The notes beneath the pieces were generated by a model. It was not told where the DNA came from, ran no database searches, and saw nothing but the letters and a program-made list of their open reading frames with translations. From positions 140,740,001 through 140,804,000 of the forward strand of contig JBNRSN020000003.1 in NCBI GenBank assembly GCA_051313645.2: a DNA stretch of 64,000 nucleotides, written 5' to 3'. A program made the translations under genes and the position numbers. The DNA is from Centroscyllium fabricii. Lineage: Eukaryota. Shown piece by piece: positions 7,681 through 64,000 of the stretch. Every line of letters begins with the position of its first letter. The first letter of the stretch is position 1.

Positions 7681-7955
7681 GGATGGGCACTAAATGCAGG
7701 CCTAGCCAGCCAGCGACGCCCACATCCCATCAATGAACAATTAAAAAAAAACTAAGAACTGTGGTGCATGTTCCCACTGAGTTCTCCAGGTCGAATGGCT
7801 CAAGCCGCTCTGGAGTCCTCCATATAACAAAAGACAAGGGTGGAGCCCGACATATACAATAGACAAAGGTGGGCGGTACATACATTCCATACATTCCTAG
7901 CACAGGCAAGTCCAGGTGAAAAGCACAGTCTGATGAACATGCATATTTCATCACA

Positions 7956-11603: not shown

Positions 11604-12519
11604 CTCGATGTTTTAGTTTTTAAAATTGATAGGCCATCAATAATCCAAGCGAGAGGTTTAAGGACTTAAAGTTAGGCTTTTAATAACTAAGAACTGTGGT
11701 GCATGTTCCCACACTGAGTTCTCCAGGTCGAATGGCTCAAGCCACTCTGGAGTCCTCCATATAACAAAAGACAAGGGCGGAGCCCGACATATATAATAGA
11801 CAAAGGTGGGCGGTACATACATTCCTAGCACAGGCAAGTCCAGGTGAAAAGCACAGTCTGATGAACATACTTATTTCATCACAGTAACCAGCTGATTAAA
11901 CGTGATATCCACGATGTCCTCAGCATCGCGAATGCTCCAGTATCTATCCATTCGCAGCTCCAGTGCCGCAATGCGGTCTGCCAGTAGCTGCAGCTGGATA
12001 CACTTCCTGCACACATGGTCATCACCTGTGTCCCTGATTTCCCTCATAGTGCAGGAGGAGCATGCCATGGGGCCGAGCTGTGCTGTCATGACTTAACCCT
12101 TCAATTAATTTAAATCAAATCAAATCAATACCACCAATTACACTACCATTAAATGATATACTCAAGGGCCCTTGGCTACGAGCACTCCCCGATACACAAC
12201 AGAGACCTTAGAAACTATAACCACAAAAATTAAGTCCTTCTAAACTTTATAAACTGTTAACCTTAACTGTTAAACTGTAGAGTAGTATAAATACCCACCT
12301 GACCGTACTCACCCAATCGGCTGCTTCCTCTTGCCCGTGTCACTTTTTGAATTGTGGCATGGCTCTGGAATGCCACTACTGATCGCCACCATTGTCTCCC
12401 CCCCACCCCCCCCAGCTCAGTGAGGTTATGAAGATGTGCTTCCCCTCTGCCCATCTGCTGCTGTTCATATGCCACCTTTGCCTGCAAGAGAAAGGGAAGT
12501 GTGTCAGGGAAGTGGGCAG

Positions 12520-14519: not shown

Positions 14520-17500
14520 TGACGTATCGTCAATATCTCTTAATAAAAGACTGGACGAGTAGTTACCGTAACTATAGGCTTTTAATAACTTACTTTGGAG
14601 CTACCCTCCGAACGAACATCAGAACAGAATGAGGGAGCCTCGGTCAGTCCTCACCTATAAAGGCCTCACCTGGGGGAGGAGTTAGAGGTGTGGCTGACCT
14701 GGCTCCACGACAGTGTTACAGGCTGTGTATCACACACAGCCAATTGTTGGCAACAATAATTCAGTGGTACATATACATATTATGGGTTACCACATTCACC
14801 CCTTCTTGAAAATTTTGAGTCCGGGGGGGGGTGAATGGACCGAGTAGTTCAATATCAGTTTGTCCGGCGGTCGTGTCAGCCTGGAGGACCGCCGGAGTTC
14901 CGGTGATGGTTCTTCGTGGTCCGTGCTGCTCGAGTCCGTTGGTAGTGACAGCGGCTCTGGTGCCGTAGTTTCGGATGGTGATGGTCTCAGATGGTCCGAG
15001 CTATCGGAGTGGTGGTCTTGGGCTGGCCACGGCTGGGGCTCTGGAAACCTCGGAGGCCATCGTAGGTGTAGGGGGTGTTCTGGATACTGTGGCTGGGCGG
15101 GCTGCTGGCCGACCAGGGGCTCTGCTGCGGTGTTTCCTGCGGGCGCCAGGTCCCTAATTGAAACGGTGTCCTCACGCCCGTCCGGGAACTGTACAAACGC
15201 GTATTGCGGGTTCGCATGCAGGAGCTGCACCTTGTCCACCAGGGGCTCGGTCTTGTGGCCACCGACGTGTCTCTTAAGGAAGACCGGCCCCGGTGTCGTG
15301 AGCCATGGAGGAAGAGCTGTCCCCGAAGTCGACTTCCTGGGAAAAGCAAAAATCAAATCATGAGGGGTGGCGTTAGTGGCCGTACACAGGAGAGAGCGTA
15401 TAGAATGCAGCGCGTCTGGGAGGACTGCCTGCCAATGGGCCACTGGAAGGCCTCTGGACTTCAGAGCCAGGGTGACCGCATTCCAGATGATCGCATTCTC
15501 CCTTTCTACCTGGCCGTTCCCCCGGGGGTTATAACTGGTCGTTCTGCTCGTGGCAACCCCTTTCTGGAGCAGAAACTGACGCAGTTCATCGCTCATGAAC
15601 GATGACCCCCGGTCGCTATGGATGTAGCTGGGGAGACCGAAAATGGCGAACAGCGTGGTGAAGTGTTTCATCACCGTTGCGCTCGTCATATCTGCGCAGG
15701 GGAAGGCGAAGGGGAAGCGGGAGAACTCATCTACGACCGTGAGGAAGTATGAGTTGCGGTCGGTGGTGGGGAGGGGGCCTTTGAAGTCCACGCTGAGACG
15801 TTCAAAGGGGCGGGTGGCCTTGATGAGGTGCACCGTGTCTGGCCGGAAAAATTGGGGTTTGCACTCGGCGCAAACAGGGCACTCTCGGCTCATAGCCTTG
15901 ATCTCCGTGATGGAGTAGGGGAGGCTACGGGATCTGACGAAGTGGGCGAGTCTGGTGACACCCAGGTGGCAAAGGCGGTCGTGGAGGTCCTTCAGCCGGT
16001 CTAGCTGGGCACTGGCGCACGTTCCCCTGGACAGTGCGTCCGGGGGTTCATTGAGTTTACCTGGTCGCTAAAGAATGTCGTACTCGTAAGTCGAGAGTTC
16101 GATCCGCCACCGCAGGATCTTATCATTCTTGATTTTACCCTTCTGTTTATTATTAAACATAAACGCCACCGACCGTTGGTCGGTGAGAAGGGTCAAACGC
16201 TTACCGGCCAGGTAATGACGCCAGTAGCGCACGGCCTCCACGATGGCCTGGGCCTCCTTTTCCACTACAGAGTGGCGAGTTTCAGGTCCCTGTAGGGTGC
16301 GGGAGAAAAACGCTACGGGCCTGCCTGCCTGATTCAGGGTGGCAGCAAGGGCGAAGTCCGAAGCGTCGCTCTCCACCTGGAAGGGGATGGATTCATCAAC
16401 AGCGAGCATGGTCGCCTTGATGATGTCTTCCTTTATCCGGGCGAATGCCATTTGGGCTTCTACCGAAAGGGGGAAAACGGCAGCCTTGAGGAGTGGTCTA
16501 GCCTTGTCCGCGAACTGTGGGACCCATTGTGCGTAATAGGAGAAACATCCTAGGCATCTCCTCAAGGCTTTAGGGTTGTGAGGTAGGGGCAGTTCTTGAA
16601 GGGGTCGCATACGGTGTGGGTCGGGGCCGAGGACCCCGTTTTCCACCACGTATCCGAGGATGGCGAGCCGGTCTGTATTAAAGACACATTTGTCTTTGTT
16701 ATACGTGAGGTCCAGCTTATCCGCCATGTCGCGGAATTTGGCCAGATTGGCATCGTGGTCCTGCTGGTCGTGGCCGCAGATGGTCACGTTGTCCAGGTAA
16801 GGGAAAGTGGCCTGCAACTCGTTCTGGTCAACCATGCGGTCCATCTCCCTTTGGAACACTGACACTCCGTTGGTCACGCCGAAAGGGACCCGGAGGAAGT
16901 GGTAGAGCCGACCGTTCGCCTCGAAGGCGGTGTAGGGGCGGTCGGCTTTCCGGATCGGGAGTTGGTGATACGCCGACTTAAGGTCGATCGTGGAGAACAC
17001 CTTATATTGGGCGATCTGGTTGACCATTTCCGAGATGCAGGGGAGGGGGTAGGCGTCGAGCCCGGTGTAGCGGTTGATAGTCTGGCTGTAATCGATCACC
17101 AGCCGCTGTTTCTCGCCAGACTTCACCACTACTACCTGGGCCCGCCAGGGGCTGGTGCTGGCTTCAATTATCCCCTCCTTCAGCATACGCCCGACCTCCG
17201 ACCTGATAAACGTGCGATCCCCCACACTGTACCGCTGACTCTTGGTAGCAATAGGTTTGCACTTGGGGTCGAGGTTGGCGAACAGTGAGGGGGGGTCGAT
17301 TTTCAGGGTGGAGAGGCCGCAGGCCGGGCTCCGCTTTGGGAAGGGACAGTCCCGGCTACTGACGGTGAGGGGGGGCAAGGTCCCGCCGAACTCCATTGTC
17401 ATGCTCTTGAGGTGGCACTGGAAATCCAGACCTAGTAAGGCTGGGGCACACAACTGCTGGAGGGTGTACAATTTAAAATTACGGTACACGCACCCCTTGA

Positions 17501-19349
17501 CTGTGAGCGTGACGGAGCAGTAGCCGGTGACGTCCGCGGTGTGGGACTTTGAAGCAAGGGAGACTTGGTAGTTCGAGGGCAGGATCTGCAGTCCGTAGCG
17601 CTGCACTGTATCGGGGTGCACAAAGCTCTCCGTGCTTCCAGTGTCAAATAGGCAATCGATAATATGGCCGTTTATTTTAATAGGCATTATCGAATTCGAC
17701 AGAGTGTGTGGCCTGTCCTGGTGCACTCTGGGTATGGCTGAAGCCGACATGTACTTTTGTGTGTGGGGGCACCCTGCTGGTTGGGGCTGTATACAAAATG
17801 GCGGCGCCCCTGGCTCGCACATGGTGGGGCCTTGGAGACAAAATGGCGGCGCCCCTGGCTTGCAAATGGCGGGCCGCTGGGGACAAAATGGCGGCGCCGA
17901 GGGGTCGCACATGGTGGGCCGCTGGGGTCGAGATGGCGGCGCCCGTGGTTCGCACGCGGCTGACCGCTGTGAGCGCGCTGGCGGCGCCCGTGGTTCGCAC
18001 GCAGCGGGCCGCGGTGACTGGGTTGGCGGCGCCCGTGGTTCGCACGCAGCGGGCTGCGGTGGTCGGGTTGGCGGTGCCCGTGATTCGCACGCAGCAGGCC
18101 GCGTTGGGTCTGCTGCTGGCGTTGGGGGGTCGCGCTTTGCCGGCCTTTGCCGCATCGGGGTGGGAGCTGGGGGAGCTTCCCTTCTACCCCCGGACCGTCG
18201 CTGGATCGCGCTGCTATTGCAGCTTACCAGAGGTCTGTCGGAGCTTTCACAGGCTGCGCTGTTGTACCTGGAGTTGGGTGCTGCTGGTGCTGATCTGCAA
18301 GCCTTTGCGTAATGTCCCTTTTTGGCGCACCTCTCGCAGGTCGCGGTCCTTGCTGGGCATCTCGCTCGCGGGTGCAGTCCCTGGCCGCAGAAATAGCAGC
18401 GTTTGTCCTTTGTGGCTGTCGCAGCCATCGTGGGGGTCTCGACCCGTTGTGGTGCTGCCCAGGCCTGGGCCCGTTGTGGCGCGGCCCACATGTCGTAGGC
18501 CTGCGGGTTTGTGCCGCTGTACGCCTGCAATTTATTGCGTGCTCCTTCAACGGAGTTAGCTATGGCGATAGCCTCTTCCAGAGACAAAGAGTCTTTTTCG
18601 AGCAGCCGCTGGCGGGCTTCCATGCACCTCAGGCCGGTTACGTACGCGTCTCGGACGAGGAGGTTCGCCTCCTCTTCTGCTGTCCGGGCTTGGCAGCCAC
18701 AGACCTGTACCAGGGCCTGTAGCACTTGCTCAAACTGTTCATTGGTCTCACCCGGTAGTTGTGGTCTGGTTGCGAGCACATGTCTGGCGTAGACCGAATG
18801 GACCGGGCGCTCGTAGCATTTCCTCAGCTTTTCCACTGCCCCTGGGTAGGTTTTGGCGTCTCGGATGAGGGAGAATACTCGGCTGGAGATCCTAGACCGG
18901 AGAACCTGTAGCTTGTTCCCATCGGTTGTAGCCTTGGCGGCGTCCATATAGGCCTCCAGGAGACCGAACCAGTGTTCGAACGTGGTGGCGGCGGCTGGGT
19001 CCTGTGGACTGATATCCAGCTTTTCTGGCTTTACTGCACCGCTCTCCATTTCAAAAATGTTAAGTTATTAAAATTGACGTATCGTCAATATCTCTTAATA
19101 AAAGACTGGACGAGTAGTTACCGTAACTATAGGCTTTTAATAACTTACTTTGGAGCTACCCTCCGAACGAACATCAGAACAGGATGAGGGAGCCTCGGTC
19201 AGTCCTCACCTATAAAGGCCTCACCTGGGGGAGGAGTTAGAGGTGTGGCTGACCTGGCTCCACGACAGTGTTACAGGCTATGTATCACACACAGCCAATT
19301 GTTGGCAACAATAATTCAGTGGTACATATAAATATTATGGGTTACCACA
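14520..19349 (-). mobile_element. Ty3/Gypsy LTR retrotransposon B (young, no tRNA PBS)
   Basis: 275-bp LTRs 14520-14794 and 19075-19349 with 3 visible differences; TSD GTAGG; PPT aaggggtgaa. Confidence 0.97.
14796..19049 (-). pseudogene. gag-pol: Single gag-pol frame of element B with one nonsense codon (TAG at 16068-16070)
   Basis: The 993-aa ORF continues in frame into integrase; element D has TAC (Tyr) at the same codon. LFDTGS, YLDN and DFKGP/SDRG/VER motifs. Confidence 0.92.
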
Positions 19350-19376
19350 GTAGGTGAGTACCCAATTACTGTATAC

Positions 19377-22300: not shown

Positions 22301-23920
22301 GACTGGAGGGCCTGTGGTGGTGATGTGATGCTCCACCCCGTGCTTGGCCGTGCGGGCTGTGAAGGTGGGGTTGGTGAGGGCTGGGATCTCCGCGAGGAGC
22401 GTGGCGTACGTGTCGGAGTTCCGGGCTCAGCAGTGGGACGCTGCGTGGGTCTGGTGTGCCGGCCCTGTGGAGCATGGGATGGTCGACATGTTGTGGATGT
22501 CGACCAGGCGGCGTCGGGTAACGTCGACCAGGAGGCCGTGGGCGCACAGAAAGTCGGCCCCGAGTAGGGGTATTTTGACTTGGGCTGTGATGAAATCCCA
22601 CTTGTACGTGTGGCCTGCTAGCTTGATGGTAAGCTGGCGGGTGCCGAACGTAACTATCTCGGAGCCGTTTGCTGCTTCGAGTGGTGGGCCTTGGGTGCCT
22701 TGCTTGGTTTCTGTGGGGGAGGCTGGCACAATGCTGTGCTGCGCGCCTGTGTCGCAGAGGAAGCGGAGGCCTGAGCCGCTGTCCGTGACGAAGAGCAGTG
22801 CTCCGGAGCGGCCTACGGACATGGTGGGGCTCGGGCTGGTTTGGGGTTTGAAGGTGCAGGGCTGGACGCAGCGCTGCGCTTTAGCTTCGAACCTGGTGTG
22901 GTAGTAGCACCAGCCGGGGCCTGTGGTGCGTGGCTTTTTGTGGGTCCGCACCGGTCTGGGTTGGGACCTGGGGCCGGGCCTGGGGTGCGCGTAGTACTGC
23001 TCCGGTGGAGCGGCGGTGGGTTGGCACGTGGCGGCTCGGGTGCGCTTGGCCCTCATCAGCTTGTCGGCCTCCTGAGCCAGTTGCTCCTTGGTATAGTGCT
23101 CAAGGACCGTCAGAGCCGGTCTGACGGAGGGAGGCAGTTTAAGGAGGAACAAGGCGCGCTTAATGGTGGCCGGGTCGCAATTGAGCGCTTCCATTTGGGC
23201 CCAGAGGTCCGATGGGTCTGCGTCCCCGAGTTCGGGGAGGTTAATGAGCTGGCAGTCGCACTCAAATTGGGTGGGGGTGAATTTTTGTAGCAGCGCGGCC
23301 TTAAGCGTTTCATACCTGCCAGCAGTAGGTTCGTGCTGTATGGATGACCACATTCGGTCGATCGTGGGCTGTGAAAGGGCCGCGAAGAGCAGGCTGTATC
23401 GATCGTCCCCCTGCACGCCATGTATGCGGTAGGTGTTCTCTGTGTTGAGGAACCAGGCCGCTGGACGGAGTTCCCAGAACTCTGGTAAGTTTGGGATTTG
23501 GCCCCGTCTGTGGAGTCGTGCTGTTTGGCTCCCTGCTGGCATGGTGGTTGTGATTCAACTGAGGCAGCTTGGCCCTCAGTCCTGCAGCGACTGCTTCATT
23601 ATGTTCCCTTGGAATTCATTCCAAGTATCGAGGTCACCACTGTAGAGGCATGCAGGCCTGAAGAACCACGCTGGACACAGAAGATTCGGAAAACAATCAT
23701 TTAATATTAACTCAGCTATGGCCAGGTAGCGAAAGAGAGTGAGCCACCTGGAACCAAGGTATTTAAAGGACCCGCGGTTGGTGACGTCACTGCCGGGTGT
23801 CCACCTGGCGACGTCATCACACCGGAAGTCACGGTGACGTCATCACGCCGCCCGGCGGGCGGGGCCGTCTCGCAGTACTCCCGAGGCGGATTCGATGGTC
23901 CTGGTGGGCGTGTCGCCACA
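19377..23920 (-). mobile_element. CsRn1-clade Gypsy element E (young)
   Basis: 280-bp LTRs 19377-19656 and 23641-23920 (3 differences), 4-bp TSD ATAC, tRNA-Trp-like PBS tggtgacctcgat, CHCC gag motif CYYHTRFEAKAQRCVQPC. Confidence 0.95.
19754..23542 (-). pseudogene. gag-pol: gag-pol of element E with one in-frame TGA at 22427-22429
   Basis: ORFs 22427-23542 and 19754-22336 are in the same frame; LCDTGA, WASPLH, YLDD, TDAS and GPY motifs. Confidence 0.92.
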
Positions 23921-31682: not shown

Positions 31683-34309
31683 AATGATGTTTGATTTTGA
31701 TACTGGTTGCTAGAGTGGAAATGTGTTCCAGGCTACCACATTGATAATTTGCACCCTGATAACACAAATTCAGTTCCTAAAATTATAAATAATTACAGAA
31801 ATAAGTGAAAATAATTTCTGTCCAAACACTTTTTAAATCTCATATCCCTACCTAATGTGTCATTGCAAATTACGCCCATTTGGTGCTCTGGTCTTGCCTT
31901 GATGAGCTGCGTGCATATTTCAATCTATGAGATGTTGACAAGTTTGAAAATAAATCCTGGTGAAAATAATAGTGTTGAGGCTGCTGACGGACACGAGTAG
32001 AGGCCGAGACCGAATGAGTTTAAACAGACTTACTTTAATGGCATCGCGGTACAGAGTGAGCGATTCGCGCTCTTTTCTCAAATATGATGTCAGCCCGTAC
32101 GCGGGTACGGCTGCGCGCTGACGTCAGCGCATATACCGGCCCTGCTTCATGATGACATCAGCGCGTCGGCAGCCGGGCTCTGTGCGAACCGAGTCTTGCA
32201 GGCGCGTTGCCTGGAGAGGCGTCCGTGGACGTCGGTGCGGATTCGCCCGTTTAGGTGGCGGCCCGCCACAGAGCTCCCCCCAGAATCCGCTTAGGAGGAG
32301 TGGACGAGGCGGTGCGGTGGTCTGATGGGCCGGCCGGAGCGACTCTTGCGTGACGTCGGTGGACAAGGAGAGGCCGGGCGAGTTGATTGGCCGGGGGGGC
32401 CGCCCGCGTAACGGTGGGCAGGCCACTGCAGTGGGTTCGCCGGGTTCAGTGTGTGCCGGCTTGAGTTGGTCGACCGACACAGTTTCAGTTCTGTTGCCCA
32501 CCCGCAGTTTGAAGCACTTGTACCCCGCCTGTAGCACCTTGTAGGGCCCGTCGTACGGGGGTTGTAGAGGTCCGCGGTGAGCGTCATGTCGGACGAAGAC
32601 GTACAGGCTAGGCAGGATGTGTGATGTTGGTTCGCCGTGCCGGGCCACGGGCACCGGGGCGAACTGTTGCGCCGAGGCGGCAAAGTCGAGGCGTTGCTGG
32701 TCGGCTGACCAGGGCGTAGTGGCAGTGGGCAAGAACTTGCCGGGTACGCGCAGCGGCTGGCCGTACACGACTTCCGCTGCCGAAGCATGGAGGTCCTCCT
32801 TGACCGCGGAGCGTAGGCCAAGCATAACCCATGGGAGACGGTCTGTCCACGTGTTGTCTGTAAGGCTGGCTCATAGGGAAGCCTTCATAGATCTGTGGAA
32901 ACGTTCACACAGTTCGTTGGCTTGTGGGTGATACGCTGTGGTGCGGTGTAAGGTCACCCCGAGGTTGTGAGCGACCGCAGTCCAGAGTGCAGAGGTGAAC
33001 TGAGGGCCTCTGTCCGATGTCATGTCGGCGGGGACGCCGAACCGGGCGACCCATGTGCTGACGGAGGCCCTGGCGAGGTCCGCCGCCGTGGTGGTGGAGG
33101 CCAGTAGTATCGCTTTGGGCCAGCGTGTGGTGCAGTCCACATTGGTGAGCAAGTGGGTCTGGCTTGTAACGGCGGCAGAGGCCCCACGATGTCCACGTGG
33201 ACGTGGTCGAATCGCTGTGTGGGGATGGCGAAACCCCCGAGGGGTGCTTTGATGTGCTGTTGCACCTTGGCCCGTTGGCAGGCAATGCAGGAGTTGACCC
33301 AAGTACGCACATCTTTGCTTAGGCCGTGCCAGATGAAACGGTTGGCCACCATTTTGATTGAAGCGCAAATGCCGGGGTGGGACAGGCTGTGGACTAGGTC
33401 GAAGATCAGCTGCCAGGATGCCGGGACGACGGGCCGGGGTTGGGGCAGGGACATGTCGCATTTGACCGCAACCACGGTGGGGCCGCAGGCGACGTCGGCC
33501 AACTGCAGGCCGGGTAGGCTGGTGGGCGCGGAGAGCAGGTCAGGGTCTGTGAGCTAGTCGACTGCGAGCTGGGCGTAGTCGACTGCCAGGTGTGTGGCAT
33601 GGATGGCTGGGCGGGAGAGGCAGTCGGCTACCACGTTGTCTCAACCGGAGACGTGCTGGATGCCTGTGGTAAATTCGGACACGGCTGCGAGCTGGCGCTG
33701 CTGTCTTGCAGACCACGGGTCGGTTGCCTTTGCCATCGCGAATGTCAGGGGTTTGTGGTCAACAAACGTGGTGAAGGGGTGGCCCTCCAGCAAGAACCAA
33801 AAATGGCGGACCGCCAGGTACAGCGCAAGGAGCTCGCGGTCGAAGGTGCTGTGTTTCACCCCCGGGGGGCGCAGTTGGCGGCTGAAAAATGCGAGGGGCT
33901 GCCAGGTGCCGTCGACCCACTGCTCGTACATGGCTCCGACCGTGTGGTTGGAGGTGTCCGTGGTGAGCGCTACTTTGGCGTTGGGCTGTGGGTGTGTGAG
34001 CAGCGCGGCGTCGGCAAGCGCCAATTTTGTGGAAGCGAAGGCGTCCGCCATCCATTCGACTGCCATCTTGCCGCTCTTACCTCGGAGGGCCTGGTAGAGG
34101 GGGCCCATGAGGGATGTCGCTTTGGGGATGAAGCGGTTGTAAAAGTTCACCATCTGCAGGAACGCTTGTAGGCCCTTGATGGTGTTGGGGCGGGGGAACT
34201 GCTGGGCGGCCTGCCCCTTGATGGGCAGGGGTATGGCCCCGGCCTGGGTGATGTGGCCCAGGAAGTCGATGCAGTCCAGGCCGAACTGGCACTTGGCCGG
34301 GCTGAGTAT

Positions 34310-37300
34310 TGTGATGAACCTTTTAGTGTGGTTCACACTGTGCGATTATTGTATATAGTTTGGGTTAATATATTGTTAATATCTGTACATTCTGTAAGGA
34401 CCTGTACCGGCTGACCCCGCCTCTGGGCACTAGTATAAAGGAGAATGCTCCGCCCACTCATCTCTCATTCCGGGCGGGCTCACCGAGGGCACGGTTCAGT
34501 TTCTTGTAAATAAAAGCCTTTAGTTAAGAACAAGCTGTCGGCTCTGATTTGAGGCTCCACAATTTTATTTACAAGAATTTTTAAAATGAACCAGCAACAG
34601 CCAGCAACTTTTGAGAGTTGGAAGACAGACCTAAAACCCCAAACTCTCGACCTCAACCCCCAGGCACCGAACGCGTCCAATGATTTTGAACACTGGCTAA
34701 GCTGTTTTGAATCGTTCCTTGTTGTGGCCGGAGTCAGCGACGCGCACAAGAGACGAGTCCTGGTCTCCTGTGTGAGTGGCAGGGTGTATTCCATCATCAA
34801 GAGCGCCACGGAATACGATGCAGCGATGGAGCTACTGAAGGCTCGATACCTCCAGCCAGTCAACGCAGTCTATGCTCGCCATCTACTCGCCACGCGGAGA
34901 TAACAGCATGGTGAGTCGAATGAGGAGTACCTGGAGGCTCTTCAAGCTCTCGTTCTGCGCTGTGGATGCGCCCCTGTTAACGCCCAGGAGCACATGGACC
35001 TCCTCTTCCGCGATGCCTACGTGGCAGGCATCAGATCGGCCCCAGCTCGCACCCGCCTGCTCGAGCAGGATAATATGTCCCTGAATGAGGCGGTGAAGCT
35101 TTCCAACGCGGTGGATGGGGCCCTCCGGAGCCTGGATTCGTACACTGGGCACAGCTCCCACGCGGTTTACCCTGGGCCTCTGGACTCGCGCTCGACAGCG
35201 ACTGTGGCGGCCACGCCGCCATCTGGACAGCCAGCGCCTCCAAAATGCTTTTTTTGCAGCCAGAAACGCCATCCACGAAGCTCCTGCCCAGCAAAGGCCT
35301 CTTCCTGCTCCAAATGTGGCAAGAAGGGCCATTTTCTGAAGGTCTGCCGATCGCCCCGGAATCAGCAAGGAAAACGGCAGCAGCCTGTGAATTCCACGCC
35401 ACAGAGAGGCCTCAGGTACCTAGCGCCCCCCAACAGCGGCCCTCAGAACAATTGCTACCTACCTTGCCTCAGATGCGGCCTCCCAACGTCATTTCCCGTG
35501 CTCCGCCATCTTTGGGGGCGCGGGCGTCTTTCTCCTCGGTCGTTCCCCGCGCTCTGCCATCTTTAGGGGCGTGGCCTTCTTCATCGGCGTTTCGGCGCGA
35601 AACGCGGGCACCGTCTGGCCTCCTGGCAGCAGCGGCACACAGGGCGCCGCCATCTTTGATGCGGGCAACTCGCATCCCAGCATCAGAAGCCCCGACCCAT
35701 CACGTGACGCCGCCATCTTTCTGTGGGGCAACTCGCAAGCCGGCAGCAGCGGCCCCGCCCCATCACATGACGCCGCCATCTTTGTATAGGACAACTCGCA
35801 TCCCGGCATCAGCGGCCCCGCCCCATCACGTGACGACGCCATCTTTGTATAGGACAAACTTACCAATACAGGCTGCAGAAGCGACAGGTAGATTAGAAGA
35901 AACTACAATGATTCTGGCAGCAGCAACAGGCAACTCCAGGGCAATTCAGCATTCTGCCGCTTGTGCGACACGAGCCCTTCGGTCCTCCCAATGGCTTTCT
36001 CGGCGACTCACCGAAACGCCACCGCGGCCCGCTGCATGCGAATCACGGGCGCCGCCATCACCCGCGGACTCTGCATTGCACAAGGGCCCCAGCGCGCACA
36101 CCACACTTGCCTCTACGGCCCTCAACCAGTCTCTCATGTTATCGATGATGCCCATCCGGGTAGAGGGGCACCTCATCCGATGTCTGTTCGAGACTGGGAG
36201 TACGGAGAGCTTCATACACCCTGATACGGTGCGCCGTTATTCCCTCAGGGTTAGGCCCACACATCGTAAAATCTCCCTCGCCTCCGAGTCCCAGACTGTG
36301 GACGTCATCGGCTGCTGTACAGTCACTATTACTGTGAAGGGGACGACATACCGCAACTTTCCACTGTACGTCCTCCCACAGCTCTGCGCCCCTGTGTTGC
36401 TTGGCCTGGACTTCCAGTGCCATCTGCAGAGCGTGACGATGGCGTACGGCGGTCCCCTGCCTCCTCTCACGGTCAGCAGCCGCAACTGCCCTGCCTCACA
36501 ACCACACTCCTCCTGCGGTCTGTCTACCTTGAAGATAGACCCCCCCTCGCTGTTCGCCAACCTTGACCGTGACTGCAACCCCATTGCAACCAAGAGTCGG
36601 CGATACAGCGCGGGGGACCACACCTTTATCAAGGCAGAGGTTGCTCGGTTGTTGCGGGAGGGCATCATCGAGGCCAGTAACAGCCCGTGGCGGGCCCAGG
36701 TGGTAGTGGTTAAGTCTGGCGACAAACAGCGCATTGTCATCGACTATAGTCAGACCATTAAGCGCTACACTGGGCTCGACGCTTAGCCGCTTCCTAGGAT
36801 AAATGACATGGTCAATCAGATTGCCCAGTATTAATCTATATTAACGATTTGGAAGAAGGGACCAAGTGCAACATATCAAAGTTTGTGGATGACACAAAAA
36901 TGGGAGGGAGGGTGATGAATGAGGAGGACATTAAAAACCTGCAAAAGGACATAGATAGGCTAAGTGAGTGGGCAGAGATTTGTCAGATGGAGTATAATAC
37001 TGGAAAATGTGAAGTTATGCACTTTGGCAGGAAAAATAATAGAGCGAGTTATTATCTAAATGGAAAGGAACTGGAAAGTACTTCAGTGCAAAGGGATCTG
37101 GGGGTCCTGGTGCAGGGGACACAGAAAGTTAATATGCAGGTGCAGCAGGTGGTAAGGAAGGCCAACGGAATGTTGGCTTTTATTGCTAAGGGGATTGAGT
37201 ATAAAAGCAGGGAGGTCTTGTTGCAGTTGTACAGGGTATTGGTGAGACCACACCTGGAATACTGCGTGCAGTTCTGGTGTCCCTATTTAAGAAAGGACAT

Positions 37301-40300
37301 ACTTGCTCTCGAGGCAGTGCAGAGAAGATTCACTAGGTTAGTTCCGGGGATGAGGGGGCTAACATATGACGAGAGGCTGAGTGGATTGGGCCTCTACTCA
37401 TTGGAGTTCAGAAGAATGAGAGGCGATCTTATTGAAATATATAAGATTGTGAGAGGGCTTGATCGGGTGGATGCGGTGAGGATGTTCCCAATGGTGAGTG
37501 AGACTAGGACTAGGGGGCATAATCTTAAAATAAAGGGCTCCCATTTTAAAACTGAGATGAGGGGGAACTTCTTTACTCAGAGGGTGGTGCGGCTGTGGAA
37601 TTTGCTGCCCCAGAGAGCTGTAGAAGCTACTACGTGGAATAAATTTAAAACTGAGATAGAGTTTCCTGGAATTAAAGGGAATTAGGGGTTATGGTGAACG
37701 GGCTGGTAAGTGGACGTGAGGCTAGGTTGAGATCGGCCATGTCTGGTTTTTCACCTCTCCCAGGTGATTACATTGGTTTGGGCGGGGTGGAGAGTAAAAA
37801 TAAAATTGAGGTTAGGATCAGATCAGCCATGATCTTATTGAATGGCGGAGCAGGCTCGAGGGGCCGATTGGCCTACTCCTGCTCCTATTTCTTATGTTCT
37901 TATGTTCTTATGTATAAGGTCTTCTCCACCATCGACCTTAAGTCGGCCTATCACCAGCTCCCCATCAGAGCTGAGGACCGTAAATACACTGCCTTTGAGG
38001 CAAATGGGCGCCTTTTTCACTTCCTCCGGGTCCCCTTTGGGGTTACCAACGGAGTTTCAGTCTTCCAACGGGTGATGGACCGAATGGTTGACCAGTATCA
38101 TTTGTAGGCCACATTCTCGTATTTGGACAATGTCACGATCTGCGGCCATGACCAACAAGATCATGATGCCAATTTGGACAGGTTTCTCCGTACGGCCCAG
38201 CGTCTGAACCTCACTTACAATGAGGATAAGTGCGTTTTCAGCACTAACCGGTTGGCTATCCTCGGCTACGTAATTGAGAACGGGGTCCTCGGCCCCGATC
38301 CCGAACGTATGCGCCCCCTTCAGGAGCTGCTCCTACCGCACTCCCCCAAATCTTTGAGGAGATGCCTGGGGTTTTTCTCTTACTATGCTCAATGGGTTCC
38401 CCATTATGCTGATAAGGCCCGGCCTCTCCTCAGGGCTACCTCCTTCCCGCTCCCGTTAGAGGCCCAAATTGCCTTTTCGCATATCAAGCAAGACATCATC
38501 AAGGCAACCATGCACGCCATTGATGAGTCTCTCCCCTTCCAGGTCGAAAGCGATGCCTCAGACTTCGCCCTGGCTGCCACCCTTAACCAGGCAGGCAGGC
38601 CCGTCGCTTTCTTCTCCCGTACCCTACAGGGCCCTGAAGTCCGCCACTCTTCAGTGGAAAAGGAGGCCCAAGCAATCGTGGAAGCAGTGCGCCACTGGCG
38701 CCACTATTTGGCCGGTAAACGATTTACCCTTCTTACTGACCAGCGGTCAGTAGCGTTTATGTTCCACCATAAACAGAGGGGTAAAATCAAGAATGACAAG
38801 ATCCTTAGGTGGCGGATCGAACTCTCCGCTTTTGAGTACGACATTTTGTCCCGGCCAGGGAAGCTTAACGATCCCCCGGATGCCCTGTCCCGAGGAACGT
38901 GTGCCAGCACCCAGTCGGGTAGTCTGAACACCCTCCACACTAATCTCTGCCACCCGGGGGTCACCAGGCTCGCTCACTTCGTCAAATTACGCAATCTCCC
39001 TTATTCCATTGCGGAGATCAAGGCGATGACGCAGGAGTGCCCTGTCTGTGCTGAGTGCAAGCCTCAGTTTTACAGGCCTGACAGGGCGCACCTCATCAAG
39101 GCCACCCGCCCATTCGAGCGCCTGAGTGTGGACTTCAAAGGTCCCCTCCCCTCTACCAACCGTAACTCGTACATTCTCACTGTGGTCGCCGAGTTCTCCC
39201 GTTTCCCTTTTGCATTCCCATGCCCAGATATGATGAGTGCAACAGTGATAAAGCATTTTATCACGCTATTCGCCATTTTCGGCCTTCCCGGCTTCATACA
39301 CAGCGACCGGGGGTCCTCATTTATGAGTGACGAACTGCGTAATTTTCTGCTCGTGAGGGGGGTTGCCTCGAGCAGAACGACCAGTTACAACCCCCGGGGG
39401 AACGGTCAGGTAGAACGTTATAATGGGACCATCTGGAAGGCCATCACCCTGGCCCTTCGATCCAAAGGCCTTCCAACCTCCCACTGGCAGGAGGTCCTCC
39501 AGGATGCGCTCCACGCTACCCATTCTCTCTTGTGTACAGCCACCGGTTGCACGCCTCACGAGAAACTCTTCTCTTTCCCCCGGAAATCGACTTCGGGGAC
39601 GTCTCTGCCGACGTGGCTTACCAACCCGGGGCCGGTTCTGCTTAGAAGGCATGTCCGTGGACACAAGATGGACCCTCTTGTTGAACGTGTGCGCCTGCTG
39701 CATGCCAACCCTCATTATGCCTACGTGGAGTACCCAGACAGGCGTGAGGATACTGTCTCGATTAGAGACCTTGCGCCCGCTGGAGACGTTCACTTAGAGT
39801 CGTTGGCGGAGCCTTTGCCCTCCCAGGTCGCATTTTCACAACCGGGGCCGGCCGTCTTTTCATTCACCTGCGCACACTACATCGGGGCCCTGGTCACTCA
39901 CAATGCATGACGGAGCTCATCATGTTGCTCAGCCTACTCTTCCAGCGGCTGCTACACCTCCACCCGATCTTCCTGTGCCTGAGGTACCTCTTCCACCGGT
40001 GGAGTCCCTGTTCACGTCGGGAGCCCCGTCAACGTCTTTTCCGATTACGACTGCTCCCGCTTCTTCGCCAGAACCGACACTGCCTCGCAGAACTACTTGG
40101 ACTGTTAAACCCCCACTAAGACTGATAACACAGTGCTGATATTCGCCCCGCGGGACTTGTTTTTAAGGAAGGGGTGAATATGATGAACCTTTTAGTGTGG
40201 TTCACACTGTGCGATTATTGTATTTAGTTTGGGTTAATATATCTGTTAATATCTGTACATTCTGTAAGGACCTGTACCGGCTGACCCCGCCTCTGGGCAC

Positions 40301-40431
40301 TAGTATAAAGGAGAATGCTCCGCCCACTCATCTCTCATTCCGGACGGGCTCACCGAGGGCACGGTTCAGTTTCTTGTAAATAAAAGCCTTTAGTTAAGAA
40401 CAAGCTATCAGCTCTGATTTGAGGCTCCACA
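34310..40431 (+). mobile_element. Ty3/Gypsy element C (no tRNA PBS) nested in F
   Basis: LTRs 34310-34561 and 40179-40431, TSD AGTAT, PPT aaggggtgaa, disrupted gag-pol 34586-40139. Confidence 0.96.
36832..37912 (+). mobile_element. 5'-truncated CR1 inserted in the RT of element C
   Basis: SKFVDDTK...RPHLEYCVQFW ORF (36849-37685) and (ttcttatg)n tail; the Gypsy RT resumes YKVFSTIDLKSAY. Confidence 0.93.
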
Positions 40432-42707
40432 AGTATGAGCCCATGTTCGCTGAGACGCTGGAACAGGGCTTTAAGGTGTTCGAGGTGCTCCTGTTTGGAG
40501 GAGCTGGCTACCAGGATGTCGTCCAGGTAAACGAACAGGAACTTCAGGTCCCGTATGACCGAATCCATTAGCCGCTGGAATGCCTGGGCTGCGTTTTTGA
40601 GGGCGAAGGGCATTCTCAGGAACTCGAACCGGCCGAAGGGGATGATTACGGCCGTCTTGGGGATGTCGTTGGCGTGGACGGGGACTTGGTGTTATCCCCG
40701 CACTAGGTCGACTTTGGAGAAGACTGAGCAGCCGGCCAGTCTAGCCGAGAAGTCCTGAATGTGCGGTACGGGGTACTGATCAGGTGAGGTGGCGTCGTTA
40801 AGGCGACGGTAATCCCCGCAGGGGCGCCAGCCCACATCGGGTTTGGGGGCCATGTGGAGTGGGGAGGCCATGGGGCTGTTGGAGCGGCGAATGATACCGA
40901 GTTGCTCCATTGTGGCGAACTCGTTCCGCGCGATCTCCAGTTTGGCTGGGGCCAGCCTGCGGGCGTGGGCATGTACAGGCTGCCCTCTGGTAGGGATGAA
41001 ATGCTCCACCCCGTGCTTGGCGACCTTAGCTGTGAAGGTCGGGTTGGTGAGGGCCGGGAATTCGGCCAGGGTGCCGAGTAGGCGCCCGTGGTCCGGACGC
41101 GGCACTGCCGCCATGTCGGCGGGCTGGGCAGGGGCCATGGCACCGGAGATGGGGGACATGGTGTTCATGTCCACGAGGCGGTGCCAGGGCATGTCGACCA
41201 GTAGTCCGTGTGCGCACAGGAAGTCCGCACCGAGGAGGGGTGAGAGTACCTTAGCTGCGATAAACTCCCATCGGTAGCGGCGACCGGCGAGGTCGATTGT
41301 GACCGTGTGGGTGCCGTACGTCCGACCCGTTTGCAGCAGCGAGTGCCAGTCCTCGTGCGCCCATTTGAATTTCGAGGGCGGTGGCGGGAACGATGCTGTG
41401 CTGCGCACCGGTGTCGCACAGGTAGCGGCGGCCTGTTTTGCCATCCGTGACGTACAGTAGAGGGCCCGCGTGCCCCACGGCCATGGTATGGGCCGGTGTG
41501 AGGACGGGTTTGAAGGTGCAGGGCTGTGTGCACCGTTGCGCCTTGATGCCGAACCGTGCGCGGTAGTAGCAATAACCCGGGTTCGGAGGGCTTGAGGGTC
41601 GCGTCGGCCTCGTGGCCGGGCCTTGTGGACGCGTGAAGGGTGCGGTGGGGCGCGCCGTGGCAGTGGCCGCCATGTCGGGAATGATGTCACGGTTGGCTTG
41701 GGCAGACAGGAGCTTGTCGGCCTCGTCGACCAGAGCCGCTAGGTCCTTGTGGTTGGCCGCCACGATGGTAGGCCGGATGCTGGGGGGTAGCTGGCGGATG
41801 AACAACGTTCGGAAGAGGGACCCTGGTGGCTTCTCATCCGTGAGCGAGTGCATGTGGGAGAGCAGGTCTGACGGTGAGGCGTCACCGAGGCCTGGGAGGT
41901 CGAGGAGCTGGCAGTTGCACGTATATTGGGAGGCCGTGAATTTTTTAAGGAGCGTAGCCTTAAGATGTGCGTACTTGCCGTGCTCAGGTGGGTTCTGCAG
42001 CGTTGTCCAGACCTTCGTAACCGTGGAGCTTCTCAGCGAGGCGATGAGGTAATCATACATCGTGCCATCTCTGTTGATGCGCTGGAGCCTGAATCGGGAC
42101 TCAGCTTGGAGGAACCAGGCTCCGGCCTGGTTTTCCCAGAACTCTGGCAGTTTGACCGAAACTGCGCTTGTATCCGCCATTGCAGGGCTCGGAATTCGTT
42201 CCGAGTGTCGGGGTCACCAGTGTTGAGGCTGCTGACGGACACGAGTAGAGGCCGAGACCGAATGAGTTTAAACAGACTTACTTTAATGGCATCATGGTAC
42301 CGAGTGAGTGATTCGCGCTCTTTTCTCAAATATATATACCGCGCGGCTTGCGTCGTGACGTCAGCCCGTATGCGGGTACGGCTGCGCGCTGACGTCAGCG
42401 CATATACCGGCCCGGCTGCGTGATGACATCAGCGTGTCAGCAGCCGGGCTCTCTGCGAGCCAAGTCTTGCAGGTGCGTTGCCTGGAGAGGCGTCTGTGGA
42501 CGGCGGGGCAGATTCGCCCGTTTAGGTGGTGGCCCGCCACAACAGTATATTATTTTCCAGACTGCCAAGTACTTTTGGAAATAAATGTACTGTAGCATTG
42601 AAGACTTGTTATTACACAATCTGCTAACAGATTTGATTATTTTGTTTTTCCTTTTTAATATTTTAAATTATTTTAACCTTCCTGCCTTTTGTTCTGTCCT
42701 CCTTCAG

Positions 42708-50985: not shown

Positions 50986-51074
50986 CACCACACTGCTGCA
51001 AAACCAGCAGCCATCCTCCATTTGCCCTGGGATTTTGCTATTCAGAGCTTCCTTAAGTTCTATGAAGGTGTTTC

Positions 51075-51328
51075 TGTGATGAAATATATATACTTTCATC
51101 AGCCTGTGTTTCTACCTTAGACTTAGCTTGTGCGTGTATGTACCGCCTACTTTTCTATTGTATGTATTGGGCTCCGCCCCCTGTCTTTTGCCATATAAAG
51201 GACTCCTGAACTGTATGAGTCATTTGACCTGGAGAACTCACTGTGGAATCATGTACCACAGTTCTTAGCTATTAAAAGCCTACCTTTGAGTCCTTAAACC
51301 TCTCGTTCGTGTTATTGATGGCCCATCG
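51075..51328 (+). mobile_element. Solo LTR related to element A
   Basis: tgtgatgaaat start, ttagctattaaaagcc motif, TSD gtttc/ctttc. Confidence 0.85.
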
Positions 51329-51682
51329 CTTTCCACAAGAGTTTCTTGAACTAGCATCCAGTTCTTCTGTGGCTAAAGTGGCCTCCAATCCAGGCTTAGC
51401 ACCTTGTGGAGGATTGTTCCAAGGCTAATCCTGCCCTGTATGGTTTTAGACACTAAAAACATCACCGAACACATGAAGACTTTGTTAGAGTCTTTACTAC
51501 TGGGCCATATTTCACTTTTTGCCTGCTTTTATACGGAACAGCTGTGGCTATTCAAAGACGAACCAGTCTATACTGTTTCTGTCGACCAGTTGATAGATGC
51601 TGAGACCTTGTGAACTCCAGAAACAGCTTATCGGTACTATTCTTAAAAATTGATGACTGGCAACTGAAATTGATTCTTCTTA

Positions 51683-59321: not shown

Positions 59322-62300
59322 TGACGTATCGTCAATTCTCTCAATAAAAGACTTAGACGAGTAGTTACCTTAACTACGGGCTTTTATTAACTAACTTTGG
59401 AGCTATACTCCGAACGAACATCCAGAACAGAATGAGGGAGCCCGGCCAGTCCTCACCTATAAAGGGCCTCACCTGGGGGGAGGAGTTAGAGGTATGGCTG
59501 ACCTGGCTCCACGACAGTGTTGCAAACATGATAACAGAACAGCCAATATTGGCGACAATATTGCAGTGGTAAAACTATGTATAATACGGTTACCACATTC
59601 ACCCCTTCTTGAAAATTTAAGTCCGGCGGGGTGAATGTAGAAAGCAGTTCACTATAAGTTTGTCCGGCGGTCGCGTCTGTCTGGAGGACTGCCGGGGCTC
59701 TGGCAGAAGTTCATTATGTTCCGTCCCGCTCGGGTCCGGTGGTGGTGACGGTGGCTCTGGTGCCGAAACTTCGGATGCTGGTGGCCTCGGTTGATCTGAG
59801 CCATCGGAATGGTGGTCGTGGGCCGGCCACGGCTGGGGCTCTGGATACCTCGGAGGCCACTGTAGATGCAGGGGGTGTTCAAAATACCGTGGCTGGGCGG
59901 GCTGCTGCCCGACCAGTGGCTCTGCTGTGGTGCTCCCGGCGGGCGCTAGGTCCCTGATGGAGACGGTGTCCTCGCGCCCGTCCGGGAACTGTACGTAGGC
60001 GTATTGGGGATTCGCATGCAGGAGCTGCACCTTGTCCACCAGGGGGTCGGTCTTGTGGCCACGGACGTGCTTTCTAAGGAAGACCAGCCCCGGTGTCGTG
60101 AGCCATGGAGGAAGAGCTGTCCCCGAAGTCGACTTCCTGGGAAAGGAAAACATCAAGTCATGAGGGGTGGCGTTAGTGGCCGTACATAAAAGAGAGCGTA
60201 TTGAATGCAGCGCGTCTGGGAGGACTGCCTGCCAATGGGCCACTGGAAGGCCTCTGGACTTCAGAGCCAGGGTGACCGCCTTCCAGATGATCCCATTCTC
60301 CCTTTCTACCTGGCCGTTCCCCCGGGGGTTATAACTGGTCGTCCTGCTCGAGGCAACCCCTTTCTGGAGCAGAAACTGACGCAGTTCGTCGCTCATGAAC
60401 GACGACCCCCGGTCGCTATGGATGTAGCTGGGGAGACCGAAAATGGCGAACAGCGTGGTGAAGTGTTTTATCACCGTTGCGCTCGTCATATCTGGGCAGG
60501 GGAAGGCGAAGGGGAAGCGGGAGAACTCATCTACGACCGTGAGGAAGTATGAGTTGCGCTCGGTGGTGGGGAGGGGGCCTTTGAAGTCCACGCTTAGACG
60601 TTCAAATGGGCGGGTGGCCTTTATGAGGTGCACCGTGTCTGGCCGGAAAAATTGGAGTTTGCACTCGGCACAAACAGGGCACTCTCGGGTCATAGCCTTG
60701 ATCTCCGTGATGGAGTAGGGGAGGCTACGGGATCTAACAAAGTGGGCGAGTCTGGTGACACCCGGGTGACAGAGGCGATCGTGGAGATCCTTCAGCCGGT
60801 CTAGCTGGGCACTGGCGCACGTTCCCCTGGACAGTGCGTCCGGGGGTTCATTGAGTTTACCTGGTCGGTAAAGAATGTCATACTCGTAAGTCGAGAGCTC
60901 GATCCGCCACCGCAGGATCTTATCATTCTTGATCTTACCCTTCTGTTTATTATTAAACATAAACGCCACCGACCGTTGGTCGGTGAGAAGGGTAAAACGC
61001 TTACCGGCCAGGTAATGACGCCAGTAGCGCACGGCCTCCACGATGGCCTGGGCCTCCTTTACCACTGCAGAGTGGCGAATTTCGGGTCCCTGTAAGGTGA
61101 GGGAGAAAAACGCTACGGGCCTGCCTGCCTGATTCAGGGTGGCGGCAAGGGCAAAGTCCGAAGCGTCACTCTCCACCTGGAAAGGGATGGATTCATCAAC
61201 GGCGTGCATGGTCGCCTTGATAATATCTTCCTTTATCCGGGCGAATGCGGTTTGGGCTTCTACCAAGAGGGGGAAGACGGCAGCCTTAAGGAGTGGTCTA
61301 GCCTTGTCCGCAAACTGTGGGACCCATTGTGCGTAATAGGAGAAAAATCCTAGGCATCTCCTCAAGGCTTTGGGGTTGTGAGGTAGGGGCAGTTCTTGTT
61401 GGGGGCGCATACGCTGTGGGTCGGGGCCGAGGACCCCATTCTCCACCACGTATCCGAGGATGGCGAGCCGGTCTGTCTTAAAGACACATTTGTCCTTGTT
61501 ATACGTAAGGTCCAGCTTTTCCGCCGTGTCAAGGAATTTGGCCAGATTGGCATTGTGGTCCTGCTGGTCATGGCCGCAGTTGGTCACGTTGTCCAGGTAA
61601 GGGAAGGTGGCCCGCAACCCGTTCTGGTCAACCATGCGGTCCATCTCCCGCTGGAATACCGACACTCCGTTGGTCACGCCGAAGGGGACCCGGAGGAAGT
61701 GGTAGAGCCGACCGTTCGCCTCGAAGGCGGTGTCGGGAGGTCGGCTTTCCGGATCAGGAGTTGGTGATACGCCGACTTAAGGTCGATCGTGGAGAACACC
61801 TTATATTGGGCGATCTGGTTGACCATGTCCGAGATGCGGGGGATGGGGTAGGCGTCGAGCCCGGTGTAGCGGTTAATAGTCTGGCTGTAGTCAATAACCA
61901 GCCGCTGTTACTCGCCAGTCTTCACCACCACTACCTGGGCCCGCCAGGGGCTGGTGCTGGCTTCAATTATCCCCTCCTTCAGCATACGCCCGACCTCCGA
62001 CCTGATAAACGTGCGATCCCCCACACTGTACCGCCGACTCTTAGTAGCAATAGGCTTGCAGTTGGGGTCGAGGTTGGCGAACAGTGAGGGGGGGTTGATT
62101 TTCAGGGTGGAGAGGCCGCAGGCCGGGCTCCGCTTTGGGAAGGGACTGTCCCGGCAACTGACGGTGAGTGGGGGCAAGGTCCCGCCGAACTCCATTGTCA
62201 CGCTCTTGAGGTGGCACTGGAAATCCAGACCTAGTAATGCTGGGGCACACAACTGCTTGAGGGTGTACAACTTAAAGTTACGGTACACACAACCCTTGAC

Positions 62301-63953
62301 TGTGAGCGTGACGGAGCAGTAGCCGGTGACGTCCGCGGTGTGGGACTGTGAAGCAAGGGAGACTTGGTAGCGCATGGGCAGGATCTGCAGTCCGCAGCGC
62401 TGCACTGTATCAGGGTGGATAAAGCTCTCTGTGCTTCCAGTGTCGAACAGGCAATTAGTAACATGGCCGTTAATTTTGATCGGCATGATCGAGTTCGATA
62501 GGTTGTGTGGCCTAGCCTGGTCAACTTTAGGTATGGCTGAGGCCAAAGTGTGCCTTTGTGTGTGGGGGCCCCTTGCTGGTTGGGGCTGTACACAAGATGG
62601 CGGCACCCGTGGCTCGCACATGGCGGGGCGCTGGAGACAAGATGGCGGCGCCGAGGGGTCGCACATGGCGGGCCGCTGGAGACAAGATGGCGGCACCGAG
62701 GGGTCGCACATGGTGGGCCGCTGGAGACAAGATGGTGGCGCCCGTGGTTCGCACGCAGCGGGCCGCGGTGACTGGGTTGGCGGTGCCCGTGGTTCGCACG
62801 CAGCGAGCCGCGGTGGTTGGGTTGGCGGTGCCCGTGATTCGCACGCAGCGGGCCGTGCTGGGTGTGCTGCTGGCGTTGGGGGGTCGCGCATGGCTGGCCG
62901 TGGCTGAGCTTGGCGTGCTGTGGGTGCAGCCGGCCTTTGCCGCATCAGGGTGGGAGATGGGGGCGCTTTTCTTCTACCCCCGGACCGTCGCTGGATCGCG
63001 CTGCTATTGCAGCTCACCTGAGGCCTGGCGGAGCTTTCACAGGCTGCGCTGTTGTACCTGGAGTTGGGCGCTGTTGGTGCTGACCTGCAGGCCTTCACGT
63101 AGTGTCCCTTTTTGGAGCACCTCTCACAGGTCGCGGTCCTCGCTGGTCATCTTGCTCGTGGATGCAGTCCCTGACCGCAGAAGTAACACCGTTTGTCTGC
63201 CTTTGCGGCTGTCGCAGCCATCGTGGGGGTCTCGACCCGTTGTGGTGCTGCCCAGGCCTGGGCCCGTTGTGGCGTGGCCCATGCGTCGTAGACCTGCGGG
63301 TTTGTGCCGCTGTACGCCTGCAGCTTGTTACGTGCCCCTTCTACAAAGTTTGATATGGAGATCGCCTCCTCTAAGGTCAAAGAGTCTTTCTCAAGCAGCC
63401 GCTGGCGGGCTTCAACGCACCTCAGGCCTGTTACGTAGGCATCACGGACGAGGAGATTCGCCTCTTCCACTGCTGTCCGTGCTTGGCAGCCACAGACCCA
63501 TACCAGGGCTTGGAGTGCTTGTTCAAATTGTTCATTTGTCTCACCCGGCAGTTGCGGTCTGGTCGCGAGCACATGTCTGGCGTAGACCGAGTGGACCGGG
63601 CGCTCGTAGCATTTCCGCAGTTTCTCCACTGCCGCTGGGTATGTTTTGGCGTCTCGGATGAGGGAGAATACTCGGCTGGAGATCCTAGACCGGAGAACTT
63701 GCAGTTTGTTCCCGTCGGTTGTAGCCTTGGCGGCGTCCATATAGGCCTCCAGGAGACCGAACCAGTGTTCGAAAGTAGTGGCGGCGGCTGGGTCCTGTGG
63801 ACTGGTGTCCAGCTTCTCTGGCTTTACCGCACCGCTCTCCATTTCAAATTTTTCTTAGTTAATAAAATTGACGTATCGTCAATTCTCTCAATAAAAGACT
63901 TAGACGAGTAGTTACCTTAACTACGGGCTTTTATTAACTAACTTTGGAGCTAT
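59322..63953 (-). mobile_element. Ty3/Gypsy element D, sister of B (no tRNA PBS); 5' LTR interrupted
   Basis: 3' LTR 59322-59597, 5' LTR from 63869, disrupted gag-pol 59617-63842. Confidence 0.95.
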
Positions 63954-64000
63954 TGTAGCGCCGGCAGGCCTAGGAACCACACTTGAGCCAGAGCAAGAGA
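63954..64000 (-). mobile_element. End of an E-related LTR inserted into the 5' LTR of D
   Basis: tgtagcgccggcaggcctaggaaccac resembles tgtagaggcatgcaggcctgaagaaccac at 19377. Confidence 0.65.

Follow-up and report, generated by a model that had tools for sequence, protein, structure and literature searches.

Covarying complementarity between the 5′ LTR and the primer-binding site in Ty3/gypsy elements without a chromodomain

We have found that two related Ty3/gypsy elements of Centroscyllium fabricii, B and D, carry beside the 5′ LTR a primer-binding site exactly complementary to a 13-nt segment of their own LTR (the arm), and that the substitutions separating the two arms are mirrored in the two primer sites. 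Both elements lie in a 64,000-nt stretch of contig JBNRSN020000003.1 (assembly GCA_051313645.2, positions 140,740,001 to 140,804,000), hereafter the window. The mirrored helix is real and well above chance. A 13-bp core (12–18 bp without interruption) stays exact while its letters change across a whole Ty3/gypsy clade without a chromodomain. Judged from sequence, the helix is most likely the footprint of self-priming with recopying of the primer site.

Elements of the window and the B/D helix

The window is transposon-rich animal DNA whose best named protein relatives come from sharks and rays. It contains four related Ty3/gypsy elements (minus strand: A, B and D; plus strand: E), each with gag-PR-RT-RNaseH-IN in a single frame and no env. 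Their Ty3/gypsy membership is seen in the TG...CA LTRs, the polypurine tract, the target duplication (5 bp at B and E) and the PR-RT-RNaseH-IN order. Feature coordinates are collected in Table 1. No tRNA gene was found within the window, and a comparison with Rfam matched nothing in 63700-64000.

Table 1. Positions, in the window, of the elements, helix strands and neighbouring features
Feature	Position	Strand	Remarks
Element B	14520..19349	(-)	LTRs 98.9% identical; 5-bp target duplication
B 5′ LTR arm	19135..19147	(-)	
B primer-binding site	19061..19073	(-)	
D 5′ LTR remnant	63869..63953	(-)	85 nt; 100% identical to D 3′ LTR; ends CA
D 5′ LTR arm, putative self-primer end	63929..63941	(-)	13 nt; identical in 3′ LTR, 59394-59382
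Putative poly(A) hexamer in D arm	63930..63935	(-)	AATAAA (ATTAAA in B)
Four bases past the inferred cut site	63925..63928	(-)	GCCC in D; RCCT in most families
U5 hairpin gtagtta/taactac	63908..63924	(-)	B/D family only; no compensatory B/D change
U5 stem tcgtc/gacga with inner stem	63876..63907	(-)	B/D family only
Spacer, LTR end to D primer site	63868..63868	(-)	One base (A)
D primer-binding site	63855..63867	(-)	Complement of arm; begins TTT, not TGG
D gag-PR-RT-RNaseH-IN frame	59617..63842	(-)	Start codon 63842-63840; no env
D polypurine tract and spacer ahead of 3′ LTR	59598..59610	(-)	
D 3′ LTR	59322..59597	(-)	276 nt; arm 59394-59382
E arm and primer site	34501..34577	(+)	Arm 34501-34515, site 34563-34577; perfect 15-bp helix of different sequence
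A arm and primer site	11613..11690	(-)	Arm 11690-11678, site 11625-11613; 12/13 paired

On the minus strand, D reads arm TTAGTTAATAAAA, the CA that ends the LTR (63869), a spacer A and site TTTTATTAACTAA; the corresponding sequences of B are arm TAAGTTATTAAAA and site TTTTAATAACTTA. Both helices are perfect 13-bp complements with a mismatch closing each end. Counted from the primer 3′ end, B and D differ at positions 6 and 12; both differences recur in the site. The initial annotation had described them as compensatory: all the letters that it quoted are present, both differences are compensated, and one of them does turn ATTAAA (B) into AATAAA (D), as it had said.

A 13-nt complement is expected by chance with a probability of 3–4e-5 per LTR, and exact mirroring with a probability of 2.6–3.8e-4, given the B/D LTR divergence of 0.114 (31 substitutions in 271 aligned sites). 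The folding z-score of the LTR stretch together with the downstream site is −4.2 in D and −2.6 in B; for the 3′-end copy of this stretch it is −0.7 and −0.6, respectively.

The U5 stems proposed along with the helix (gtagtta/taactac and tcgtc/gacga) exist and fold, yet they show no B/D compensation: the B/D differences in U5 are in loops, in linkers or on one side only. The centroid structure of B favours a competing hairpin at the LTR end. Copy variants from sequencing runs, among those listed, sit in linkers and loops of the tcgtc/gacga stem. Other families do not have these stems; we rejected them as a covarying structure, and they add little to the pairing argument.

D is truncated, its 5′ LTR surviving only as the remnant in Table 1, followed by foreign sequence, which the initial annotation did not record. 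This sequence (63954-64000) starts with TG on the plus strand, stands in place of the remaining 5′ LTR 12 nt from the arm, has no match elsewhere in the window and is probably a nested LTR element. The D frame is interrupted by a stop (63149-63147) and by a frame change between 61908 and 61776. In B and D, 45-nt tandem repeats (17743-18177 and 62542-62976) encode a Pro/Cys-rich linker between Gag and protease.

The RT region of E is split by an insertion of ∼1.1 kb (36832-37912). The A 3′ LTR ends within the arm, at a T run (7747-7752) opening a LINE/SINE-like insertion; the A 3′ arm therefore cannot be compared with respect to A's one mismatch. A solo A-type LTR (51064-51330, plus strand), 79% identical to that of A, has a clear TATA/Inr pair and an arm that differs from the A arm at one position. 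Two further elements, C (19375-23920) and F (31971-42541), belong to another Gypsy lineage; their primer sites start with TGG and form no helix of at least 6 bp. C adjoins B (25 nt from the B 5′ LTR) and E is nested within F.

Pairing and covariation across the clade

An alignment of 38 proteins was used to search for relatives and yielded 80 metagenome loci and 10 loci in metagenome-assembled genomes (MAGs); the same search of viral contigs gave no relative. The gag start was present in 34 of the 90 loci, of which 29 were counted; with the four window elements they make up 33 elements of 19 LTR families. The LTR end was set by the second LTR in 16 of the 33 (three of them shifted 1 nt by hand) and in the remaining elements by a CA-n-TTT motif or by hand.

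All 13 pairs were formed in 24 of the 33 elements and at least 12 in 30, as compared with 2 and 14, respectively, of 1004 cross-family control pairings. Five loci had been set aside and were re-read by eye: the helix was present in L069 (at least 14 pairs), L013 (14) and L018 (12 of 12 visible bases), L078 had no arm and L035 could not be scored. With these loci included, 33 of 37 elements reach 12/13, while L011, L055, L083 and L078 fall short.

For the covariation check that had been suggested we used 21 rows covering the 19 families. This alignment is biased upward, as its rows are mostly the best member per family and are cut at the helix ends. In it, 270 of 273 cells are paired; two-sided change is found at 10 of the 13 pairs, one-sided change at none, and no pair changed via G-U. 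None of 500 shuffles matched this result, and slid registers pair 23–52%. Arm and primer site thus pair exactly while their letters change together. In the 33 elements, G-U pairs account for 2 of 396 pairs, with 10 mismatches in addition.

The primer site starts 1 nt past the LTR end, 23–67 nt from the arm. Its first letters are TTT (TCT once) in 33/33, partly via the junction rule, which favoured T's at the site start; the invariance of the first three pairs is therefore partly built in. Pairing is complete over positions 1 to 12 and frays raggedly over 14–18, and the base after the arm makes no Watson–Crick pair with the spacer base in any of the 33. This combination gives the helix the geometry of a primer. 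Positions 1–3 and 10 are nearly invariant, and selection on the sequence must therefore act as well.

In RT trees built without named references (no Tf1, sushi or Mag/SURL), the self-complementary elements group together in a single clade (SH-aLRT 100), separate from the TGG-type elements. Its stem is long (1.43), and its nearest rows are TGGCGACG-type elements (SH-aLRT 94), which, unlike the clade, have tRNA-type sites. Among 20 outgroup regions, five have a clear LTR pair and all five start with TGG; their self-match, like that of C and F, is at most 9/13. The other 15 either have no LTR pair (nine) or unresolved repeats (six). One of the latter, L123, has a non-TGG site of uncertain ownership with a 9/13 self-match. 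The name of the clade was not found in full-text literature or in the protein atlas.

Changes within families follow the same rule. L009 is 98.8% identical to L007, and both of its arms and its primer site have changed; in L006 both arms have changed and the primer site is old. In B, D, E and L009 the arms of the two LTRs agree.

Four contig sets were mapped on the B 5′ end, with depths that are not copy numbers; one set, X1, may share the source of the window. Among the variants listed for X1, primer-site changes at positions 6, 8, 9 and 12 take 55, 30, 23 and 9% of depth, and complementary arm changes at positions 6, 9 and 12 take 56, 12 and 12%. The arm partner of position 8 is absent among the variants listed; one loose end in the X12 set matches the letters at 8 and 9. 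Depth arithmetic suggests that one spanning X15 contig carries both position-12 changes. As unphased data, the run variants support linkage of arm and site. Independent assortment of LTR and primer-site variants, the outcome named beforehand as contrary to the claim, was not seen across families, within the L009 family or, unphased, in the runs.

Two side observations concern the collected loci. G001-G003 (L081-L140), filed as bacterial MAGs, have up to ∼155 matches to animal-type Gypsy elements, likely from host DNA contamination. In a survey of the RT motif (P0001-P0122; 3/122 unmatched), YxDN rather than YxDD was found in A, B, D and E and in 93 of 119 motif-matched proteins, the other 26 being of YxDD type. 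Ty3 with the same YxDN change has a polymerase active in vitro, and the change is lethal for transposition (PMC5371799); B, despite YxDN, has LTRs that are 98.9% identical.

Proposed self-priming, the origin of the mirrored changes and the poly(A) signal

We propose that the helix is a tRNA-free start site of reverse transcription, Tf1-like, whose primer site is rewritten from the primer. The combined proposal we consider moderately probable; self-priming itself appears very likely, and re-templating, once self-priming is granted, quite likely. The RNA would fold back, placing the arm on the site just past the 5′ LTR, and RNase H of the RT would cut after the last paired A, leaving a primer that ends in ...AAA. 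The freed 3′-OH would prime minus-strand DNA over U5 up to the cut, with the strong-stop DNA ending at the conserved RCCT; the 15–30 nt from hexamer to poly(A) site would provide the overlap that the first strand transfer needs. The arms of the progeny would both derive from the parent's 3′ LTR, and plus-strand synthesis would copy ∼13 nt of the primer and so rewrite the primer site. A new arm letter would appear first in both LTRs next to an old primer site, the site being matched one cycle later.

Under this proposal the mirrored B/D changes would arise from primer-site rewriting filtered by the need to pair, and L006, with new arms and an old site, is in the lagging state expected under re-templating. 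In Tf1, about half of the cDNA is described as ending 3′ in a PBS that has been reverse-transcribed (PMC11042837). The polymerase–RNase H spacing given for Ty3 RT, ∼13 bp, is the same as the length of the 13-bp core (PMC5371799).

Alternatively, the elements may prime themselves and still inherit the site from genomic RNA, the mirrored changes being second-site mutations under strong Watson–Crick selection. For Ty1 and Ty3 it is documented that the primer sequence is not inherited (PMC5371799, section 2.2), which counts against re-templating; moreover, four arm positions are nearly invariant, and the phased within-family mirrored changes are only three (B/D twice and L009). Such selection would, however, tolerate G-U steps, which are almost lacking here. 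Each of the three phased changes is a transversion, arm divergence keeps pace with the LTR average (2/13 against 0.114 between B and D), and L009 finished its change within ∼1% divergence. For these reasons we regard the inherited site as unlikely, while three phased events are few. The initial annotation had left the choice between selection on the pairing and re-templating from the self-primer; its inference is supported, and probably both apply, the transversion flips, the near absence of G-U and the arm divergence making us lean to re-templating on a required helix.

A perfect inverted repeat might also come from template switching during host replication, at the DNA level and with no role in RNA. 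Template switching perfects quasi-palindromes and would also yield exact complements and transversions. The 3′ LTR arm, however, has no partner, and in B, D, E and L009 it nevertheless agrees with the 5′ arm; the 3′ arm of L009 has the same new letter as its 5′ arm and site. Nor would template switching explain why the helix keeps its place at the priming site throughout the clade, and this explanation seems to us extremely improbable.

Two other sources of a primer were rejected. Priming by a tRNA 3′ end or a half-tRNA does not fit a site that lacks TGG and changes with the LTR (tRNA-primed sites start with TGG; PMC5006619). A primer made by splicing is not needed, the arm being contiguous in DNA.

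Under the self-priming proposal the primer is probably internal to the RNA. A TATA-like motif 22–38 nt before the arm was found in 0/19 families, and 7/19 have no motif at all. TATA/Inr pairs ∼26–31 nt apart were seen in B/D (a weak TATA with two mismatches; in the D 3′ LTR, TATA-like at 59463-59457 and Inr-like at 59435-59429), in E and, counted by eye, in the solo A-type LTR; their spacing would probably place the RNA start 34–43 nt before the arm. An unpaired leader from such an upstream start would call for a signal that halts plus-strand synthesis. For the bases past the arm, a 4-bp partner exists in 15/19 families against 120/190 control heads, a weak excess; AGGY was counted in 12/19 against 2/19, and of the two comparisons only this count stands. 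An RCCT/AGGY stem is seen at the putative cut in 12/19.

Upstream of the arm, L025, L028, L039, L078 and L087 have by eye a pyrimidine tract followed by CAG, resembling a splice acceptor. With such tracts within LTRs, the RNA start would be further upstream.

At the end of the arm stands AATAAA or ATTAAA in 13/19 families, and GTTAAA, GATAAA or TTTAAA in the other six; in two of these six, U5 contains a canonical hexamer. An arm that ends in a poly(A) hexamer would lie near the RNA 3′ end, and a primer might accordingly come from the other end of an RNA: from the 3′ R of the genome, or from a short capped RNA that receives its poly(A) tail in the 5′ LTR, with trimming or cutting down to the duplex. 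The inferred start upstream of the arm is in keeping with this, and DNA alone cannot say which copy primes. The 5′ arm is, however, just 23–67 nt from the site and fold-back is favoured, and poly(A) cleavage lies well downstream of the hexamer, so that extra processing would be needed. A primer from the other RNA end is thus improbable.

The predicted unpaired probability of the hexamer in B, D and E is 0.01–0.05 in the 5′ context and 0.70–0.99 in the 3′ context; by this folding model, the helix probably also hides the poly(A) hexamer, at the 5′ LTR only. Such occlusion fits a second role of the helix, and the helix does not require it. Should this be its only role, with priming by something else, the helix would be a mere switch for the 5′ LTR poly(A) signal. 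The predicted 5′-only pairing agrees with that, as does the toggling second letter of the hexamer, A or T in 19/19 families as the signal requires. A switch, however, needs no fixed 1-nt offset, no sharp 3′ boundary and no absence of G-U; six of 19 families keep the helix without a canonical hexamer in the arm, and no other primer site was seen. We therefore take the switch-only explanation to be quite improbable and retain self-priming.

In the D 3′ LTR (59335-59390), weak pairing is possible between the hexamer and a U-rich U5 stretch; ATTAAA of B breaks one of its pairs, and the pairing was not seen as a feature of the clade.

Relation to known elements and significance

With a site by the 5′ LTR complementary over at least 10 nt to their own LTR, these elements answer to the description of self-primed retrotransposons. 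Tf1/Tf2 of Schizosaccharomyces pombe, Tj1 and Tf1/sushi elements share with them the Ty3/gypsy domain order, the lack of a tRNA site, a site beside the 5′ LTR complementary to an 11–13-nt LTR stretch and, usually, a single gag-pol frame. In Tf1 the RNA's first 11 bases anneal to the PBS, and the RNase H cut falls between bases 11 and 12 (PMC7175516); Tf1/sushi elements are described as having a chromodomain, a three-duplex pretzel and a primer at the 5′ terminus (bioRxiv 10.1101/2022.12.06.519325).

Here, none of the 38 proteins scanned (36 with an integrase core; E ≤ 0.01) gave a chromodomain hit, nor did the integrase frames of the window, and in a crude test of the pretzel side helices the energies of site-adjacent duplexes were no better than the cross-family null. 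Unlike in Tf1/sushi, the primer appears to be internal rather than the first bases of the RNA, the arm ends in a poly(A) hexamer and the RT motif is mostly YxDN. These elements would thus work like Tf1, and we do not file them as Tf1/sushi.

Layout and size of the clade resemble those of Mag-type elements, and Gag has two CCHC knuckles, a Mag trait. Pufferfish Mag1 is ∼4.7 kb long with 200–300-nt LTRs and a single gag-pol frame (PMC11117352); by this listed description, animal Mag-lineage Gypsy elements are like the clade in size, LTR length and single frame. In plants, self-priming was predicted from the same LTR/PBS complementarity for Tcn1 (gypsy) and TAR/Houba/Osr-1 (copia); these are other lineages in other hosts, and the portion of that report available to us mentions no link to a poly(A) hexamer (PMC6317226).

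Two parallels concern retroviruses. The HIV-1 poly(A) hairpin hides the hexamer in a helix, while the occluding strand here is present at the 5′ end only. Retroviral primer sites are copied from the primer (PMC5371799), whereas the template here would be the element's own mutable LTR, and the arm/site pair can therefore drift.

The self-priming mechanism is already known; what appears to be new is the lineage, the probably internal primer and the overlap with the poly(A) signal. In the full-text literature, with subscription journals and Repbase Reports outside its scope, we came across no account of an animal Gypsy clade that lacks a chromodomain and primes itself. Self-priming is reportedly noted for some Gypsy entries of Repbase, and an earlier description is possible. 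In the literature examined, self-priming has been shown experimentally for fission-yeast chromoviruses only.

A more far-reaching reading can be offered tentatively, as possible rather than probable: a widespread animal Gypsy clade (named relatives are from sharks and rays, corals, mussels, insects and nematodes) may have invented self-priming independently of Tf1/sushi, through an internal piece of R ending in the hexamer. One helix would then make the primer, set a minimal transfer overlap and silence the 5′ poly(A) signal; rewriting of the site in each cycle would let the pair drift freely, and the RT would naturally carry YxDN, the change that is lethal in Ty3.

If our interpretation is true, a second, chromodomain-less clade would make tRNA-free priming a repeated invention and would account for elements to which annotation pipelines assign no PBS; by linking primer and poly(A) signal, a single helix would take care of two LTR problems. 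Series of copies in which the arms change first and the primer site later make primer inheritance testable from genomes alone.
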